Shown here piece after piece: positions 3,171-10,854 of a DNA stretch of 64,000 bases. A program made the position numbers and the translations under genes. This stretch comes from an uncultured archaeon (GTDB taxonomy: Archaea > Aenigmatarchaeota > Aenigmatarchaeia > QMZP01 > JACQNV01). The DNA is taken from NCBI GenBank assembly GCA_964476045.1, contig CAYYYJ010000001.1:50733-114732 (forward strand). Direction: 5' to 3'. Within the stretch, counting starts at the first letter, position 1, and every line of letters starts with the position of its first letter. A model generated the notes under the pieces. That model saw only the letters and a program-made list of their open reading frames with translations, was not told the origin of the DNA and ran no database searches.

Positions 3171-3686
3171 CTACGCTTTAACTGGTTGAGTGCCCTCTAT
3201 CCTCTCAGAAATACCCTTCTTTACTAAAAGTTCAGCTATCGGTTTTGGGACAGTAGCCATATCCCCTGACTTGAACGGCCCATACTTCTTCATATTAGTG
3301 CCAACAAATTCTTCTACATCCTGGAAAAATACCAAAAATTCCTCCTTCTCTTTTATGTCCATCTGCTTCTCAACTTTTTGGCGGAAGGATTTGATGACAT
3401 TCACTAAACTGTTAAAAAGTTCCTGTTCTTCGAGAGTCAGATTATCCAGAGTAACATTAGCCTTCACTGCGTTTATTGCCGAGTTGATTATTTTCTTCTC
3501 CCTGAGGTCTATAATATCCTGCAGCCTTCTTCGCGCAGACTCCAATTTCCATTCCTCCTCTGCAACTTTTGCTTTCTTATCCAGATAATTCAAAGCTTCG
3601 ACAAAAAAATCTTCTGGAATAGCGGTTAGTCTCCCTGTCGCTTTTTCCTCGTCTAAAATTTTTCTGATAGATTCGTAAGTTAGCAT
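3171..3686 (-). CDS. putative GINS subunit (Gins51/Gins15-like)
   Basis: Helical N-terminus MLTYESIRKILDEEKATGRLTAIPEDFFVEALNYL resembles GINS A-domain openings; about 170 aa; located in the same operon as the primase gene, as gins15 is in several archaea. Confidence 0.45.
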   Translation of the reverse strand: MLTYESIRKILDEEKATGRLTAIPEDFFVEALNYLDKKAKVAEEEWKLESARRRLQDIIDLREKKIINSAINAVKANVTLDNLTLEEQELFNSLVNVIKSFRQKVEKQMDIKEKEEFLVFFQDVEEFVGTNMKKYGPFKSGDMATVPKPIAELLVKKGISERIEGTQPVKA

Positions 3687-3694
3687 ATTTTAGA

Positions 3695-4537
3695 TCACCT
3701 TAAACTGAGTAAACTATCTGGTGGGTCACTCAGACCTCTTGATGAAGCTCTCATTACTTGAGATAAAGTTAGTTGACTATCCAGTCTAAATCCGCGAGCA
3801 CTGGTTAAGACCTTCCCCATCTCCCTATCAAATTCTCTAGAACCAGGCTCGTATACTCTAGGGATACAAATTACTCTTTCCTCTGACGAGTCCACAAGAC
3901 CTTTTTTCCGTTGTACCGTCACTTTAATTAATCTACTGTCTATTCCAAAATCCATTTCCCTAGACTCATATGGATGTATTTCGTCTTGAACTGGTTCTAC
4001 GACTATCAATGATGTTGAGCAATACTGATTCGGAACTTTTCCTTTTAGGGGTGTTCGAATAAGAACTTCTACACGTCTCTTTGTTCCGCGTTCTTTTAGA
4101 ATACCGTTATAAGAAAGATCTAGATAAGTTTCCTTCCCCCCATCAGGCCGTTTAGGAGAAATCATATATCTTAAACTGAACTCTTGGCCCAACTTATCAG
4201 TAAAATCTTTTGAGACCACGCTAGTTGGATTTGTATGAGGATTGCCATCCAAATAGGATAAAAAGGCATTCAGAACAAGACCGGAATTGAGTTTTATCCC
4301 CTCTACTCCATGAGGAGCATAAATGCTATTTTCGGCGACAATAACCCCATTCACATTAGATTTTCCAAATCTTTTTCTTATTTCATCGCCATTATCTTTT
4401 CTATGCAATGTTACGTAAACAAGACCACAAGATAACGTATGCTCCCTAAAGAACAAGCGTCTTCCTTCTGAAACAAACTCAACATCCAGATTTCTCTCAG
4501 ATTTGGCTGAATAATCAATAGTTGGACGTAATGCCAT
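3695..4537 (-). CDS. hypothetical protein (no recognisable domain), between primase and GINS-like genes
   Basis: 280-aa ORF with Arg/Gly/Pro/Ser-rich composition unlike its Lys-rich neighbours; tightly packed in the priS-X-gins operon. Confidence 0.5.
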   Translation of the reverse strand: MALRPTIDYSAKSERNLDVEFVSEGRRLFFREHTLSCGLVYVTLHRKDNGDEIRKRFGKSNVNGVIVAENSIYAPHGVEGIKLNSGLVLNAFLSYLDGNPHTNPTSVVSKDFTDKLGQEFSLRYMISPKRPDGGKETYLDLSYNGILKERGTKRRVEVLIRTPLKGKVPNQYCSTSLIVVEPVQDEIHPYESREMDFGIDSRLIKVTVQRKKGLVDSSEERVICIPRVYEPGSREFDREMGKVLTSARGFRLDSQLTLSQVMRASSRGLSDPPDSLLSLR

Positions 4538-4573
4538 ATTCTTCCTGCTATTGATGTAGAAATAACCTTTAAA

Positions 4574-5923
4574 TTATAAACTTCCTCCAGAATTCCAGCT
4601 CTCTATCCTTTCAAATTTCTTTTTGCCTGGTTTTCTGGCCAATCTGGGGGCCTTGGGCTTGTATGAACTCATTATCTTTACAGGATAGTTAATTGGGTTT
4701 TTCAGAAGTATTTTCGGCTGGCCGCAGATTCTGTCAGGCTTGCAGACAGTATCATACCAGCCAACAGATTTCTCTGATGGACAGTTAGGCGGTGGAAGCG
4801 TTTTATCTTTATTCAAATGCCATCTCAGCTGGCTCCTGATATAGGATTCTGGGAGCGGGGGAGAATTTTTCTGGTTCCATTCATTTATGTATTTCTCTAC
4901 ATCTTGCTCTGTCCATTTGGCTGCTTTCAGGAAGTTTATCAGGATAAAGACCCCTCTTTTCCTTCCGTCAGCAACCCCAGCTGAGATGTTCTTTATGCAC
5001 GGAGGGAAGATATCCTGCTTTATCGAGGATGTGATCTCAACTCTCCTGCTCTCCTTTATTTTCTCTGACTTTTCTGTTTTATTATAAAAATCTAATGTCT
5101 CTCCGATAAGGAGGTCTAACTCGCCTTCTTCTCCTGTATCCAAAAACCCTACAGTAGCATCGATTTTTTCTGGCACAGCATCCTCTTGCCTGAACTCCTC
5201 TAAGTCCTCTAGATTAACAGGAAGTGAAACCCAAAATTTTTTCATGTTCAGTGAATACGGCAGCCTGAAAAGATGCCTTGCAGACAACAAGATAGGATCA
5301 ATATCTACAATTTCAAAAGGATTTACCCCATCGCGTGTCATTATTTTTCCGAGAGGCTTTGAAGCCTGCTGTGCTAGTTCCTCAGGACTGTATTTCTTCA
5401 GCAAGGCTTTTTCTAAATCATCTTTAACCCTGGTTTTGAGGAAAGAAGCAACCTTTCTCGCAAGATCTGGGAACTGGTTTACAGTGGATTTATAATCTAT
5501 TTTCTTGGGTAGAGATTTCCAACTCAGACCTAAATGGAATCCAGTTCCCCCTGTAAATTTTATTGAGAGATTATGGACGCCAAATTTTTTCAGCTCTTTA
5601 GCTATTACCAAAGCTGCAATCTTTCCGTGATCGAACAGATCGCAATCCAAATCAAGAACAATATCCCATCCAACTCTGAGATCATTATAATTCCCTTCTT
5701 TTATAGAAGATGGGTTTGACCAGTGCTCTAAAGATCCGTGAAGCTCTATCACGCCAGATTTTGCCATTGTTGTTATATCTGTGGGAAATATGAGCGTGCC
5801 CGGCCTTTTGCTGAAAGCGCCTGTTTCATAAACTCCTGCAACCTCCCTGTTTGCAGAGACCTTGAGAAGCGCCTGCTGGATGTCTGGCCTGGAATAATAA
5901 TCAAGAACCTGCTGCCTGTCCAT
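4574..5923 (-). CDS. priS: DNA primase catalytic subunit PriS fused to a PriL C-terminal-like Fe-S domain
   Basis: AEP catalytic motif GWDIVLDLDCD and FTGGTGFH; C-terminal extension with FPPC plus three further Cys (NCPS, VCKP, ICGQ) resembling the PriL-CTD 4Fe-4S domain; 449 aa versus about 330-350 for a stand-alone PriS. Confidence 0.75.
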   Translation of the reverse strand: MDRQQVLDYYSRPDIQQALLKVSANREVAGVYETGAFSKRPGTLIFPTDITTMAKSGVIELHGSLEHWSNPSSIKEGNYNDLRVGWDIVLDLDCDLFDHGKIAALVIAKELKKFGVHNLSIKFTGGTGFHLGLSWKSLPKKIDYKSTVNQFPDLARKVASFLKTRVKDDLEKALLKKYSPEELAQQASKPLGKIMTRDGVNPFEIVDIDPILLSARHLFRLPYSLNMKKFWVSLPVNLEDLEEFRQEDAVPEKIDATVGFLDTGEEGELDLLIGETLDFYNKTEKSEKIKESRRVEITSSIKQDIFPPCIKNISAGVADGRKRGVFILINFLKAAKWTEQDVEKYINEWNQKNSPPLPESYIRSQLRWHLNKDKTLPPPNCPSEKSVGWYDTVCKPDRICGQPKILLKNPINYPVKIMSSYKPKAPRLARKPGKKKFERIESWNSGGSL

Positions 5924-6045: not shown

Positions 6046-8544
6046 TTAGCTATACTTCTCAATTATCTTTAAGCTTCTTTCCAATTCATCTATCGATTCG
6101 AGCATGCTCTCTTTTAGGAGCAATGGCAACTTCTTATTTTTCCCTAGGAACGCTTTACATTTTTTCAAAAATCCTTCTTCAACATAAACAGACGGGAACA
6201 GGTTGTCAAAGAAGTCCTCTGCATATTTCCTGTTCTTCTTTTCGAAAATCTCCAATATTTCTTTGAAAAAAGAATCGGAAAATTTCCTGAGGCCTTCTTT
6301 CTGCTTCCTGGAAAAGAACCTTGACATCCCAGTTCTCAGATAATCCAAAGAATATCCTTCACCTTTCACAAAAAGGTTCCAGTGCTCCTTCTTCTTTTCC
6401 GCTTTTGCAACTTTAGCTGCAAAAGCCTCTTTCTGGCCTTTATCGCTGCTATCTTTTTTTAACTCATTCTCTATCAGTAAATCTGTTTTAGGGTGACCGA
6501 AAACAGCAAGCCTATTTATGGACGCCCATCTCTGCTCTTGGTTAAATGGGAAATCTTTTATTTTCAACTTATTCTCTAAAAGTTCCACTACACGTTCGGG
6601 ATTTTTGCAGCCTCCTATACAAGAAGAAAGCAGATTAAACCAAACGTCTTTTAGCTCCCTGTCCATATTTTTTTGTATATTCTCTAGTGCAAAGCTGTAG
6701 ATTTTTTCGCAGTAAGTGAAGTAGTCTTCATCCTTCAAATAAGAGCCCAGTATCCCAGAAGCTCTGTTGAAAAGGGATTCGAGGATAAAGAGATTTTTTT
6801 CTTCAGGCGCTTTTTCTATAACAAGCTGTAAATATTTTTTCGGATCAAGAAAGGCATCCCTGACGCTCTGCCAAAGCGAACCATAGACCATCTGCCTTGA
6901 AAGGTCGTCCTGTATTTTCTGTATATTTTTTAGGGCATAGTTGACAGAACCTTCGTTGAGCCTTTCCTTCACATAATCATGGTCATTGTAATTCAATAAT
7001 ACAATATCAGGCTTCTCAGTTTTAGGGTCAACTTCTGTTAATACTCCTTTGTACTCGACAGAAAGCTCCTTTTGAACCCTTCCGTCTTTCAGAAAAGCTA
7101 TCTGACACCTATGCTCCCTAAGAAGGTTGTTTTTTAGCGAAGGATTTTGGACTATCCCAAGAGACTCCACTCGATTCCCTTCTGTCCTTATCATATATTC
7201 TATTGTATTCACTCCCGTAGTCTCAAGCCACATCTTTGCCCAGTTATCAAGGGATTTGCCACTCGATTTTTCCATGCACCCAAGAAAATCTTTGAGTGAT
7301 GTATTTGACCACTGGTATTTTTTGAAGTAAATCGAAAGCCCTTTTTTGAAAGCCTCCTCGCCAATAAAAAACATCAGTTGTTTGAGCACAGCAGCGCCTT
7401 TAGAATAGCTGATCCCATCGAAATTGCTGAAAGCCACATCAGTATCAGGCGCGTCAGCTGCTATTGGATGGGTTGTGACCCATTGATCTTCCACATACGC
7501 CCATGCCTTCCTCGCATAAAAGCTCTGCCATCCTTCTTTAAACTCTGTTGCTTGAACCAAGCCCAGGTAAGACAAGAAATCTGCAAAGCTCTCGTTCAAC
7601 CAGAGATCGTCCCACCATTTCATTGTCACAAGGTCGCCAAACCACATGTGCACCATCTCATGCAAAACAACATCGGCGAGAGTCGAACGCTCTGTCCTTC
7701 TTGGCTCATATCTGAACAGAAACCTTTCAGTGAACGTCACAGCGCCTACGTTCTCCATCGCACCGTGGTTGAACTCCGGAACAAATATTTGGTCGTACTT
7801 CTCAAAAGGGTATGGGAAATCAAAAAACTTCTGGTAAAATTCAAGGCCTTGCTTCGTGAAAGTGAACATGTCCTTATCTCTCAGGTATTTCTTCATTGAT
7901 TGCCTGCAAAATAGTCTGAGAGGTATTTTGCCTGATTTGTTCTGGACAGAGTGGAATTCTCCAACACTTAAGTGAAATAGATAAGTACTGAATCTAGGAG
8001 TTTGCTTGAAAAAAGTTGTTTTAAAATCGTTTTTATTCTCTACTTTTTCTTCCAGTGTGTTGGAAATCAAAGTCCATTCTTTTGGGGCCGTGACAGTCAA
8101 TTTGTATGTGGCTTTGATATCCGGCTGGTCAAAGCATGGGAACAGCCTGTGCGCATCGTAAGGCTCAAATTGCGTGTAGATATATTCTCTCTTGTCTTCA
8201 GGGTCTGTGAAATGGTGGAACCCTGTGCCTGTTTTATCGTATTCGTTTTCGTACTCAACTTCAATTTTGTTTTCTCCCTTTTTCAGCTGAGATTTATTTA
8301 TGATTAACGCAAAGCCTTCCTGTTTAAAATCAGATTTTTTATTGTTTACCCTCAGTATTTTGACATTTCCAATAAAATCTATTTTCAAATCGTCTTTAAT
8401 ATTTTTCAAAATAAAGTTGAGCTCGCATTTGCCTGAATAGGCCTTGCTGTTCTTTTTCAGGGAGACCTGTATTTTATAACTGACATCGCTTATCGCGGAT
8501 GTCCTTTTTTCTGCAAACTTTCTTGTCAGGATGTCTTCTGCCAT
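6046..8544 (-). CDS. pepN: aminopeptidase N (M1 family gluzincin)
   Basis: HEMVHMWFGDLVT (HExxH) followed by WLNESFA glutamate motif; 832 aa. Confidence 0.9.
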   Translation of the reverse strand: MAEDILTRKFAEKRTSAISDVSYKIQVSLKKNSKAYSGKCELNFILKNIKDDLKIDFIGNVKILRVNNKKSDFKQEGFALIINKSQLKKGENKIEVEYENEYDKTGTGFHHFTDPEDKREYIYTQFEPYDAHRLFPCFDQPDIKATYKLTVTAPKEWTLISNTLEEKVENKNDFKTTFFKQTPRFSTYLFHLSVGEFHSVQNKSGKIPLRLFCRQSMKKYLRDKDMFTFTKQGLEFYQKFFDFPYPFEKYDQIFVPEFNHGAMENVGAVTFTERFLFRYEPRRTERSTLADVVLHEMVHMWFGDLVTMKWWDDLWLNESFADFLSYLGLVQATEFKEGWQSFYARKAWAYVEDQWVTTHPIAADAPDTDVAFSNFDGISYSKGAAVLKQLMFFIGEEAFKKGLSIYFKKYQWSNTSLKDFLGCMEKSSGKSLDNWAKMWLETTGVNTIEYMIRTEGNRVESLGIVQNPSLKNNLLREHRCQIAFLKDGRVQKELSVEYKGVLTEVDPKTEKPDIVLLNYNDHDYVKERLNEGSVNYALKNIQKIQDDLSRQMVYGSLWQSVRDAFLDPKKYLQLVIEKAPEEKNLFILESLFNRASGILGSYLKDEDYFTYCEKIYSFALENIQKNMDRELKDVWFNLLSSCIGGCKNPERVVELLENKLKIKDFPFNQEQRWASINRLAVFGHPKTDLLIENELKKDSSDKGQKEAFAAKVAKAEKKKEHWNLFVKGEGYSLDYLRTGMSRFFSRKQKEGLRKFSDSFFKEILEIFEKKNRKYAEDFFDNLFPSVYVEEGFLKKCKAFLGKNKKLPLLLKESMLESIDELERSLKIIEKYS

Positions 8545-8551
8545 ATTTACT

Positions 8552-8887
8552 CTAGACCAGCTCGTGCTCCCAGATATTAAGGTTGAGCCTGTGGTTGTTA
8601 GAAATGAAGCCTTTGGTCAGCGGGGTCGAGATATAATCAACAGTAGTTTTTACAAAAATCTTTTTTCTTGCTAAAAAGTTTATCATGCCTAGCGTGTCCC
8701 TGTCAGAGAAAACATGTATCTGGCCGTGTTTTTTTATTATTTTATCTGTTTTTGTTTTTTTATCGAAAACCAAATCGAACTTTATGCCACAACAGTCATC
8801 GGCTTTCTTCAGCCTCAGCCCATAGCCTTTCCTATCAGCGAGCAACTGGGTCACCACGTGCACAGCCTTTTGAGTGAGGTCTATCAT
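8552..8887 (-). CDS. HesB/IscA-like protein (degenerate, lacks the C-terminal Cys pair)
   Basis: MIDLTQKAVHVVTQLL...GYGLRLKKADDCCGIKFDLVFD matches the IscA N-terminal fold and first Cys; no C-terminal CxC. Confidence 0.5.
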   Translation of the reverse strand: MIDLTQKAVHVVTQLLADRKGYGLRLKKADDCCGIKFDLVFDKKTKTDKIIKKHGQIHVFSDRDTLGMINFLARKKIFVKTTVDYISTPLTKGFISNNHRLNLNIWEHELV

Positions 8888-8891
8888 AATA

Positions 8892-9440
8892 TTACTTCTC
8901 CAACTGGTCTAGTATTCCTACAATTTCGTCGAATTTGCTGAACCTGATAACATTGCTTCCCTTGACATTCCTGTTCCAAGGCCTGTCTTTGAGCAGAAGT
9001 ATTTTGTTTCCGTCTAGGCTCTGATGCAAATTCGGATTATCTTCTATATAAATGTCATAATCGAGTTCATGCTTATTCGAATGTATAATAAAATTATTGT
9101 GAGGCACTGTATTTTTCAAAATCCATTTATTCAGGACTTCTGGAACAGCTGTTGCAGTTACTATATCGACAGTATAATCCTGTTTTAATTCCGCGAGAAC
9201 AGATTTTACACTGGAATCAGTAAACTGGACATTCTCCCAGTTTTCTAGCCAGAGGTTATGTACAAGGTCTATGCAAGATTTTGTATCAAGTCCGAGCTCT
9301 CGCGCTTTCCCTTCAAATCCCCATCCTGTTATATCTTCAACTGAAAACTGTGTTCCAAATTTCGCGGAGATATGATCACAGAATATGGAATGTATATCTG
9401 CAATCGTCCCGTCAACATCGACGAGTATCTTTTGCCCCAT
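8892..9440 (-). CDS. HAD-superfamily 5'(3')-deoxyribonucleotidase-like hydrolase
   Basis: N-terminal HAD motif I ILVDVDGTIAD; size and layout like the NT5C family. Confidence 0.55.
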   Translation of the reverse strand: MGQKILVDVDGTIADIHSIFCDHISAKFGTQFSVEDITGWGFEGKARELGLDTKSCIDLVHNLWLENWENVQFTDSSVKSVLAELKQDYTVDIVTATAVPEVLNKWILKNTVPHNNFIIHSNKHELDYDIYIEDNPNLHQSLDGNKILLLKDRPWNRNVKGSNVIRFSKFDEIVGILDQLEK

Positions 9441-9524
9441 AGTTATTTTTTCTTTTCAGGATATAAATTAGCAAAGTGACGTACTCCAAATGAAAAGATA
9501 TTTAAGCATACTTTAAACTAGTAT

Positions 9525-10064
9525 TTGGATATGGCAACCGAAAGCTCGAGACTAGTTTTATTGGGCCAGAAAGATGGCATAAGGGAGCTTGTAGATCGAA
9601 GTCCTCCATACAGGCTACCAAGAGGCGCTGCTTCACTACGCGAAGTATTAGAAAGAAAAGATAGGCCTTATATGTCAGGGAGGCTTCTACTGGTAACAGA
9701 CGATTTTTACGGAAAATCAAGCCGTTTTTGGTACGAGCATCCAGCAGGGTTAATCGAAAGTGGTGTTATAGCTGATAGTGACACAGAGACTCACCGAGAT
9801 ATTCGAAATCCTTTTGATTATGTTCAAGCATTGTTGCTGAAGGCTGAAATAGAAGCTGATATAGAAATTAGAAATGAGGGAAAAGATGTCGTAGGTGTAT
9901 ATCTCTTGAGAAGCAATCCAAAAGACAAACTAACAATAGGTCTTGGTAGAATTATCAGGCCTCAACCCTCAGAAGGCCCGCCAGTTGGTATTGGCTATGT
10001 TCATTTAGAAAGGCCGGCTCCTGTAAAAGCAGGGGGAACACAAGGCGGTTGGGATCTGGATTGA
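9525..10064 (+). CDS. hypothetical protein (orphan ORF in a 660-bp gap)
   Basis: 179-aa ORF with Arg/Gly/Pro-rich composition; only sizeable ORF in the gap between two minus-strand housekeeping genes. Confidence 0.4.
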   Translation: MDMATESSRLVLLGQKDGIRELVDRSPPYRLPRGAASLREVLERKDRPYMSGRLLLVTDDFYGKSSRFWYEHPAGLIESGVIADSDTETHRDIRNPFDYVQALLLKAEIEADIEIRNEGKDVVGVYLLRSNPKDKLTIGLGRIIRPQPSEGPPVGIGYVHLERPAPVKAGGTQGGWDLD

Positions 10065-10104: not shown

Positions 10105-10854
10105 TCACTCATCAGACAACGGCGCGAGAATAAAATTTAAATTCACTTTGTCTATTTCCTTGAAAGAAAGCCTGAGCGGATAATCATTCCCAAACTCTAT
10201 AGTCACCTGCTTTGAGATCTTGCATGCCTTTGCCATTTTCTTTAGGTATTCAAGCTGATATCTTGACTTAAGGTTTTCTTTGATATCAAGGCTTAGTAGA
10301 CCTTGCTCACCTTTCTGCATAGTCAATTCCCATAGCGAGGTGTCGCTTTTTGATGAGATTTTAAAGTTATTTGGATCAGCCTCGAAAATAGCAGAGTCGC
10401 CTATTATATTGGCATCCTCTATACTGTCTTCCAGAACAGAAGATTCCAGGTCTATCTTTCCAGGGAAAGCCAGCTGTTCTATAGGAGGCTTATCCCTCTT
10501 AATATCTAAAATAGGGATTTCAAATTTCCTTTTCCCAGACCCCTCTACAAGCATTTCCAACTTATTTTTCGGCATGCTCAAAGTTATTTTCTCGTTTGCT
10601 TTGACTCTCTTAAGTATACTAACTAGATTAGGCAAGTTCAGTCCTATCTTCACCTCTGTATCAACTTTATACTCCTCAAAAGCGGCGGACAATAATCTAA
10701 AATCAACAACAGCGACCATGTTCCTGTCAGGCGAGAGCAAGCTCATCCCGTTAGCATCGAAAGTGAAAACAGCCTCGTCTATGATCTCTGAAATTATTCC
10801 TATAGAATTTTTGAGGACGTCAGCATTGGCAAGTATAACTTTCATAAGAAACAC
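10105..10854 (-). CDS. pcn: DNA polymerase sliding clamp PCNA
   Basis: 249 aa; N-terminus MFLMKVILANADVLKNSIGIISEIIDEAVFTFDANGMSLLSPDRNMVAVVDF typical of archaeal PCNA. Confidence 0.9.
   Translation of the reverse strand: MFLMKVILANADVLKNSIGIISEIIDEAVFTFDANGMSLLSPDRNMVAVVDFRLLSAAFEEYKVDTEVKIGLNLPNLVSILKRVKANEKITLSMPKNKLEMLVEGSGKRKFEIPILDIKRDKPPIEQLAFPGKIDLESSVLEDSIEDANIIGDSAIFEADPNNFKISSKSDTSLWELTMQKGEQGLLSLDIKENLKSRYQLEYLKKMAKACKISKQVTIEFGNDYPLRLSFKEIDKVNLNFILAPLSDE

Follow-up and report, generated by a model that had tools for sequence, protein, structure and literature searches.

An orphan gene, probably accessory and foreign, within the conserved primase-gins gene string of an Aenigmatarchaeota archaeon

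Introduction

Small to medium-sized proteins that assist primase or GINS in archaea include PriX, the third primase subunit of the Sulfolobales, and the GAN/RecJ/Cdc45 proteins, GAN being the GINS-associated nuclease. Genes that settle between others include free-standing homing endonuclease genes, which lie between conserved genes, as do seg and mob of the T4-like phages, and the strain-specific accessory genes carried by variable-cargo intergenic hot spots. In Archaea, the genes for the primase and GINS belong to the PPsG-LSIN supercluster, in which those for PCNA, PriS and Gins15/51 are followed by those for L44E, S27E, aIF-2alpha and Nop10, and whose neighbouring genes are thought to interact (Berthon et al., 2008, PMC2643942). 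Moreover, PriS and PriL have been described as fused into a single protein in DPANN Cluster 2 (PMC7414124; PMC3914693).

Here, we consider a 64-kb stretch of archaeal DNA (hereafter the window) in which a 280-aa open reading frame, ORFX, lies between the genes for a fused primase and Gins51. The original prediction had suggested that ORFX could be either a divergent replisome accessory factor, such as a PriX-like, Cdc45-like or nuclease component, or an inserted foreign gene. Our observations bear on both options and on the history of the junction that the gene occupies.

Results

The primase is a fused PriS-PriL protein of 449 aa, encoded on the minus strand (4574..5923), with PF01896, PF21686 and PF04104 on one protein; this fusion places the genome in DPANN Cluster 2. 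On the same strand lies gins (3171..3686), whose 171-aa product, Gins51, matches PF05916 at 5.6e-10 and PF22090 at 4e-16. We found 1249 homologs of the fused primase, and the best-named of these are from Candidatus Aenigmatarchaeota MAGs; the DPANN lineage originally guessed at was thus right, and the primase and GINS-like flanks that went with it are borne out by Pfam, with PriS-PriL upstream and Gins51 downstream. Further downstream of gins, Pfam identifies L44e, S27e and aIF2-alpha, and PCNA is encoded at 10105-10854, again on the minus strand. The window accordingly shares PCNA, the primase, Gins51, L44e, S27e and aIF2-alpha with the PPsG-LSIN supercluster, encoded throughout on the minus strand and following the published order. 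In this clade, genes for an M1 aminopeptidase and an NT5C nucleotidase, together with small ORFs, separate PCNA from the primase. ORFX is not among the described members of the supercluster: in a set of 82 non-redundant Aenigmatarchaeota loci, 81 have the string without it, and the single primase locus that carries it is that of this genome. By this comparison, ORFX is not a conserved PPsG-LSIN member.

The coding sequence of ORFX occupies 3695..4537 on the minus strand, running from an ATG start to a TGA stop at 3695-3697. It is separated by 36 nt from the end of the primase ORF (4574) and by 8 nt from the start of the gins ORF (3686), with all three ORFs on one strand, as had been reported and as the ORF list confirms. 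In the other frames, 3695-4537 contains no open stretch reaching 50 aa. By our own arithmetic, about 0.001 open frames of 280 codons are expected by chance in the six frames of 64 kb at 39% GC, and a search of 1.84 billion representative proteins with phmmer recovered one other member of the family, P0122 (E 2.6e-69). This protein of 278 aa aligns with ORFX from end to end at 49% identity and 64% positives, with five gap positions in the form of small in-frame indels, and both proteins begin with MA. Conserved residues are distributed along the entire length and are densest at residues 21-50, 91-110 and 201-230, and 137 positions are invariant in this two-sequence alignment. Given the low chance expectation and the existence of a full-length homolog, ORFX is not a chance frame but a real protein gene.

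P0122 comes from a contig of 1947 bp, on which a truncated 322-aa gene lies upstream of it. The same ENA sample (ERZ27297570) yielded at least three related primase contigs with differing junction contents. Together with P0122, these suggest that the content of the primase-gins junction varies among the co-occurring populations of that sample. Within the 64-kb window ORFX has no paralogs.

The product of ORFX is a soluble, Arg/Ser-rich protein of approximately 32 kDa (31.6 kDa; pI 9.1; hydrophobic segment absent). The pI of P0122 is 6.8, and the basic pI is thus not conserved in the pair. AlphaFold2 gave low-confidence models both from the single sequence (pLDDT 30.9) and from the two-sequence alignment (pLDDT 32.2); the two loosely agree on beta strands at residues 105-226 and on two C-terminal helices, which suggests a mixed alpha+beta fold at the level of such models. 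Foldseek comparisons of these models against the PDB returned nothing at E up to 0.001, with a best query-normalised TM-score of 0.18, and the entries listed (StARkin, PUR-alpha, a phage fibre and others) were set aside as noise in view of TM-scores of at most 0.18 and models of pLDDT 31-32; with models this poor, the empty comparison carries no weight against a known fold.

The original statement that ORFX belongs to no recognisable family holds for Pfam and NCBIfam (no match at E up to 1) and for the PDB, in which neither sequence nor profile search gave a significant match. The sensitive profile searches suggested with it, the PDB profile search included, likewise matched no known family, and homology to a well-known housekeeping family did not surface in any of the family searches. 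P0122 has no Pfam match at E up to 10, and no PADLOC-DB defence model matches either protein at E up to 1. A profile built from the two sequences found nothing beyond these two members among 5.8 billion proteins, and no further relative was found in the GTDB genomes, IMG/VR or the metagenome collection. Phage (INPHARED) and plasmid records hold no relative either, and no hit in IMG/VR or the phage genomes was confirmed by tblastn. Scans for viral motifs gave nothing except one out-of-frame match. In PHROGs there was one weak match, to phrog_28822 (function unknown; E 0.0018), over residues 75-113 of ORFX (39 residues), which P0122 does not reproduce and on which we do not rely. A scan of metagenome DNA seeded with the motif GLVYVTLH led to longer tblastn alignments with UDP-GlcNAc 2-epimerase-like genes carrying FVYVTLHRPSNVD and, in a further case, with one frame antisense to a zinc-ribbon gene; these matches were rejected as chance because P0122 gave them no support. 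Judged by these searches, ORFX represents a new sequence family with two known members.

Comparison with known replication proteins was similarly negative. Profile-profile alignment with hhalign gave a probability of 0.2% both for the fused PriS-PriL primase and for a 12-sequence profile of Gins51, by which an origin of ORFX as a duplicate of either neighbour was ruled out, and no Sld5-type A or B domain was matched in Pfam. The PriX model (NCBIfam NF033412) does not match ORFX; its sole match is to the PriL-like region of the primase, at E 0.0069. The low-confidence models would also differ from the helical domain of the PriX/PriL-CTD type, in that residues 105-226 are predicted to be mostly beta strands. 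There is no Pfam match to DHH or DHHA1, as in GAN/RecJ/Cdc45 (ORFX at E up to 1; P0122 at E up to 10), and the PDB sequence and profile searches linked ORFX to no replisome protein. As for nucleases of homing elements, LAGLIDADG, GIY-YIG, HNH and PD-(D/E)xK are without a Pfam match in ORFX (E up to 1) or P0122 (E up to 10), and inspection by eye of the 137 invariant positions, which derive from two sequences only, found no invariant Asn or [DE]xK triplet.

In composition, ORFX stands apart from the other ORFs of the window in its Arg (9.3% versus a mean of 4.6%), Ser (10.0% versus 6.7%) and Lys (6.1% versus 10.0%). Its R/(R+K) ratio of 0.60 (z 2.4, rank 4 of 61) exceeds the mean of 0.31, and the corresponding value of 0.72 in P0122 makes Arg-richness a trait of the family. 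Gly is mildly raised, and Pro, at 5.0%, lies below the 6.5% of the primase; hence, of the Arg/Gly/Pro/Ser-rich composition first described, Arg and Ser stand, together with the low Lys, Gly does so mildly, and Pro does not. The codon-usage and GC3 comparison with other genes, which had been put forward as a check, finds ORFX atypical, with synonymous-codon preferences of its own. Its GC3 of 0.281 is the lowest in the window (rank 61 of 61, z -2.5), the GC at codon positions 1, 2 and 3 being 0.49, 0.40 and 0.28, and its overall GC is 0.390 versus 0.394 for the window. AGG makes up 0.15 of its Arg codons against 0.46 elsewhere in the window, AGT 0.25 of its Ser codons against 0.09 (AGC usage also deviates), and GGC 0.14 of its Gly codons against 0.30. 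The codon log-likelihood deviates moderately (z -1.3). These deviations are compatible with a foreign origin or with poorly adapted codons, and low expression could explain them equally well.

The primase-gins junction of the relatives provides the context for these observations. In P0003 (loci L002-L004), with a primase 82% and a gins 87% identical to those of the window (Gins51 versus the L002 ortholog, 87%), the gap between the two genes is 39 nt. It is 55 nt in P0008 (primase 69%) and 89 nt in L005 (primase 67%), and reading of the DNA places the two genes next to each other in L208 and L207 (primase 69%). P0005 (primase 69%) has a gap of 360 nt with no gene called, and in P0009 (primase 67%) a PGM/PMM gene on the other strand follows the primase. 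ORFX is missing in every relative with a readable or inspected junction, including the closest, whose primase is 82% identical, and tblastn found no remnants of it in the 82 non-redundant primase loci, L207 or L208. Conservation of the gene neighbourhood, another check originally put forward, accordingly does not extend to ORFX: the junctions of the closest relatives are without it.

Our wider survey of the junction covered the 82 non-redundant Aenigmatarchaeota loci, in 60 of which gins comes after the primase on the same strand. The two genes are at most 150 nt apart in 42 of the 60, 151-300 nt in three and more than 300 nt in 15. The larger gaps harbour a ParE toxin accompanied by a small putative antitoxin, a PAP2 phosphatase (at two loci), an amino-acid kinase that carries an ACT domain, a hexapeptide transferase and various unrelated orphans. 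That ORFX might be a diverged copy of other junction cargo was examined with phmmer at maximum sensitivity and with blastp, and nothing was found at E below 1. Thus, the primase-gins junction in Aenigmatarchaeota is a variable site that recurrently takes up unrelated cargo.

Alignments of the junction with L002, L005, L207 and L208 delimit an extra segment of ~855 bp (approximately 3687..4545) for which the closest relatives have no counterpart at their primase-gins junction: their intergenic homology reaches to about window position 4546 and restarts at the gins ATG. A repeat search found no direct or inverted repeats beyond chance bounding this segment, and neither a target-site duplication nor terminal repeats marking an insertion were found; the locus also has no integrase or tRNA. 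A TTTAA(A)GGT-like string common to both junctions was considered as an insertion signature and discarded, since 24 of 500 shuffles score equally. A weak RNA hairpin around the ORFX start codon (4508..4560, minus strand; inverted repeat I12) has a folding energy of -9.7 kcal/mol (z -2.2), a value matched or bettered by 8 of 200 shuffles, and is possibly incidental.

Within the 36-nt spacer, 30 nt upstream of the ORFX ATG, lies a TATA-like putative promoter box, TTTAAAGGTTATTTCTAC (4556..4573, minus strand). Relatives carry its ortholog ahead of gins, the local alignment being reached by 6 of 500 shuffles for L002 and 2 of 500 for L005, and the same ATTTAAA...TTCTAA box is also present in L208, L207 and L006. 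From its sequence, it may be taken to act as a promoter. In L002, L006 and L207 this TATA-like box stands ~27 nt ahead of the gins ATG, and there is no Shine-Dalgarno match; such a leaderless arrangement is common to many genes of the window. In the window itself gins is preceded, 6 nt before its ATG, by AGGTGATC (3693..3700, minus strand), which matches the canonical Shine-Dalgarno GGAGGTGATC over 8 nt and overlaps the ORFX stop codon; among the 61 ORF starts of the window, this match is the longest. The anti-Shine-Dalgarno sequence is presumably that of archaeal 16S 3' ends in general, from which we took it in place of the host's own, the window being without rRNA.

Discussion

We propose that ORFX is a real gene of a two-member orphan family and, with fair probability, an accessory and foreign gene lodged within the conserved primase-Gins51-L44e-S27e-aIF2alpha string of one Aenigmatarchaeota lineage. 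Its absence from the closest relatives makes it most likely that ORFX is not needed for replication in this clade, and it would be a dispensable, strain-specific accessory rather than a core subunit of the replisome. Its position argues only weakly for function, because functionally unrelated genes fill the same slot elsewhere, and it would instead reflect a permissive and recurrently used insertion site. The option of an inserted foreign gene is hence the part of the original prediction that the data support, through the absence in relatives, the lowest GC3 of the window and a junction that carries cargo in about a quarter of the loci. Foreign origin by insertion is accordingly probable, albeit with a qualification: the only homolog is 49% identical, versus 82% for the primase of an ORFX-free relative, and this calls for either several losses or transfer between lineages, so that a simple recent insertion is unproven.

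The arrangement of signals around the extra segment suggests how such a gene could be expressed. With ~855 bp between the promoter box of gins and its start codon, ORFX is probably the first cistron, and would be transcribed from the conserved box of gins. In turn gins, apparently leaderless in the relatives, would have become an internal cistron read from the Shine-Dalgarno sequence that overlaps the ORFX stop. ORFX and gins are thus probably co-transcribed, and ORFX would borrow the expression of an essential operon. The co-expression with replication genes that had been anticipated from the packing gains support here from the orthology of the promoter box and the Shine-Dalgarno match of gins, both read from the sequence.

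The junction itself resembles variable-cargo hot spots in holding unrelated genes at 15 of 60 loci, the ParE toxin with its putative antitoxin among them. It differs from them in the absence of an integrase, a tRNA and flanking repeats at the ORFX locus, and in that ORFX is a single gene within an operon, not a multi-gene island. ORFX is also like the free-standing homing endonuclease genes in its patchy distribution, its place between conserved essential genes and its atypical codons, and unlike them in having neither a match to an endonuclease motif or family nor viral relatives.

Several other readings of these data must be weighed. ORFX could be a lineage-specific accessory factor of the replisome, made in a fixed ratio with Gins51 from one mRNA and binding GINS or the fused primase so as to modulate priming or helicase coupling. 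The tight packing with gins (8 nt) on the same strand and downstream of the gins promoter box, the location within the PPsG-LSIN string of presumed interacting neighbours (PMC2643942) and the basic pI of 9.1 would all agree with this. However, relatives with primases 82% and 67-69% identical do without ORFX, in other lineages the slot is taken by unrelated genes such as those for a ParE toxin, PAP2 and a kinase, the pI is not conserved (6.8 in P0122), and ORFX shows no similarity to PriX, PriL, RecJ/Cdc45/GAN, GINS or any PDB chain. We therefore consider a replisome role unlikely, and the PriX, Cdc45-like or nuclease identities first suggested find no counterpart in sequence or profile similarity, nor in the closest relatives, which lack the gene. 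Much the same absences count against an old, vertically inherited and fast-evolving gene of a genus-level clade that was lost several times and is neither foreign nor recently inserted. A second member at merely 49% identity implies a long history, the gins Shine-Dalgarno overlapping the ORFX stop suggests long residence, the overall GC equals that of the genome (0.390 versus 0.394), and the 360-nt gap of P0005 with no called gene is a candidate remnant. This history nonetheless demands independent losses in the lineages of L002, L005, P0008, L207 and L208, is at odds with a GC3 and synonymous-codon preferences unlike those of the genome, and left no remnant detectable by tblastn in the 82 non-redundant primase loci, L207 or L208; we hold it to be improbable.

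Patchy presence among close relatives can also be read in terms of a selfish, homing-type gene that targets the conserved primase-gins junction and spreads among related populations: alleles without ORFX would be cut, and repair would then copy the gene into them. Its place between two highly conserved essential genes, its atypical codon usage, the second copy in ERZ27297570 alongside related populations with differing junctions, and the two assemblies that end at the primase-gins junction are all in line with such behaviour. Yet Pfam matches to LAGLIDADG, GIY-YIG, HNH or PD-(D/E)xK are lacking, the two-sequence alignment examined by eye has no invariant Asn or [DE]xK, and the viral, phage and plasmid collections hold no relatives, which leaves this reading very unlikely. 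Taken together as the more novel outcomes, a new family acting at the archaeal replication fork as a Gins51-coupled adaptor or regulator, or a new class of selfish genes homing to the primase-gins boundary, is in our estimate quite unlikely. Least probable is a spurious or very recently born frame without a functional protein. The absence of domain matches, the AlphaFold2 pLDDT of 31-32 and the unusual GC by codon position (0.49, 0.40, 0.28) might hint at one, but it is effectively refuted by P0122, with its near-equal length, 49% identity, common start, small in-frame indels and conservation throughout, and it also runs against the chance expectation of ~0.001 per window for 280 codons.

Returning to the accessory and probably foreign gene that we favour, ORFX is in kind an ordinary strain-specific orphan of DPANN archaea; such genes are very common in DPANN genomes, and its finding is ordinary to that extent. 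Were it a modulator of the replisome or a homing-type element, it would be a new player in DPANN replication biology, although no finding points there; were it a selfish gene targeting the junction, the high variability of this junction in Aenigmatarchaeota would reflect a genetic conflict still under way at an essential operon. The locus carries a caution of more general import: tight packing, even in a famous string of replication and translation genes, is here no evidence of a replication function, because the slot recurrently takes up unrelated cargo in the phylum and the nearest relatives lack ORFX. At the same time, it offers a clean example of an inserted gene located downstream of an essential gene's promoter box, with gins apparently having switched from leaderless to Shine-Dalgarno-led translation.

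Organization of the primase-PCNA interval

In the classical archaeal PPsG supercluster (PCNA, PriS, Gins15/51), PCNA adjoins the primase, whereas in the window the two are set apart by the genes at 6046-10064, which encode an M1 aminopeptidase (832 aa), a 111-aa ORF, an NT5C-type 5'-nucleotidase, and an orphan of 179 aa. The placement of the aminopeptidase beside the primase recurs in the relatives examined (primase loci L005/L007, L006 and L207, and the locus of the primase relative P0009); in the close relatives L002-L004, an FAD-dependent oxidoreductase intervenes between the two. The 179-aa orphan (9525-10064, + strand) adjoins PCNA on the opposite strand. With a GC3 of 0.296 it ranks second from the bottom in the window, and a Pfam search gave no match for it. 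An unannotated ORF stands at its position in L002 and L005, the likeness being one of place and similar size.

At the other end of the cluster, a 106-aa ORF (1384-1704, - strand) follows aIF2-alpha, in the slot that Nop10 would be expected to fill in an LSIN cluster. Its N-terminus carries a hydrophobic stretch, its GC3 is 0.32, and its match to the EF-hand profile PF13405 is sub-threshold (E 0.0025). Across the whole 64-kb window (1-64000), searches found neither a tRNA gene nor any Rfam family that reached its gathering threshold.

Composition of the orphan ORF and the start of gins

The 280-aa orphan between the fused primase gene and gins (ORFX; 3695-4537, - strand) has GC fractions of 0.49, 0.40, and 0.28 at the three codon positions, against native values of about 0.45, 0.34, and 0.40. 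Its high GC2 and low GC3 arise because an Arg/Ser/Gly-rich protein is written in A/T-ending codons.

An 8-nt Shine-Dalgarno match precedes gins (3693-3700, - strand). When this region was compared with its counterparts in L002 (6354-6392), L006 (6971-7050), and L207 (4333-4371), all three relatives were seen to have a TATA-like box about 27 nt upstream of the gins ATG and to be devoid of the Shine-Dalgarno motif. Judged by these signals, gins appears to have passed from a leaderless gene in the relatives to an internal cistron led by the 8-nt Shine-Dalgarno in the window genome.

The 5' leader of gins in L005 contains a strong hairpin with a 12-bp perfect stem (L005 6383-6436; the region is the same in L007). 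Its folding energy is -18 kcal/mol (z -4.85), and none of 200 shuffles folded equally well. The hairpin is absent from L002, a nearer relative than L005 (67% primase identity). It could serve in regulation, or it could be a scar left by an earlier insertion or excision.

The primase-gins junction as a cargo site

Within a single ENA sample (ERZ27297570), at least three related primase contigs, those of P0005, P0008, and P0009, differ in their junction contents; the sole full-length ORFX homolog, P0122, comes from this same sample. Two contigs, L207 and the one that carries P0122, stop no more than about 50 nt from the primase-gins junction, a pattern suggesting that the assembly broke there because the population is heterogeneous.

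Across Aenigmatarchaeota, unrelated content exceeding 300 nt lies at this junction in 15 of the 60 loci with primase followed by gins on one strand (L006, L008, L012, L031, L042, L043, L047, L048, L051, L054, L056, L060, L061, L077, and L086). The cargo includes a ParE toxin pair (L012), PAP2 (L047 and L061), an amino-acid kinase with an ACT domain (L043), a hexapeptide transferase (L006), and an acidic orphan of 434 aa (L008). The primase-gins junction is thus a recurrent cargo site in Aenigmatarchaeota.
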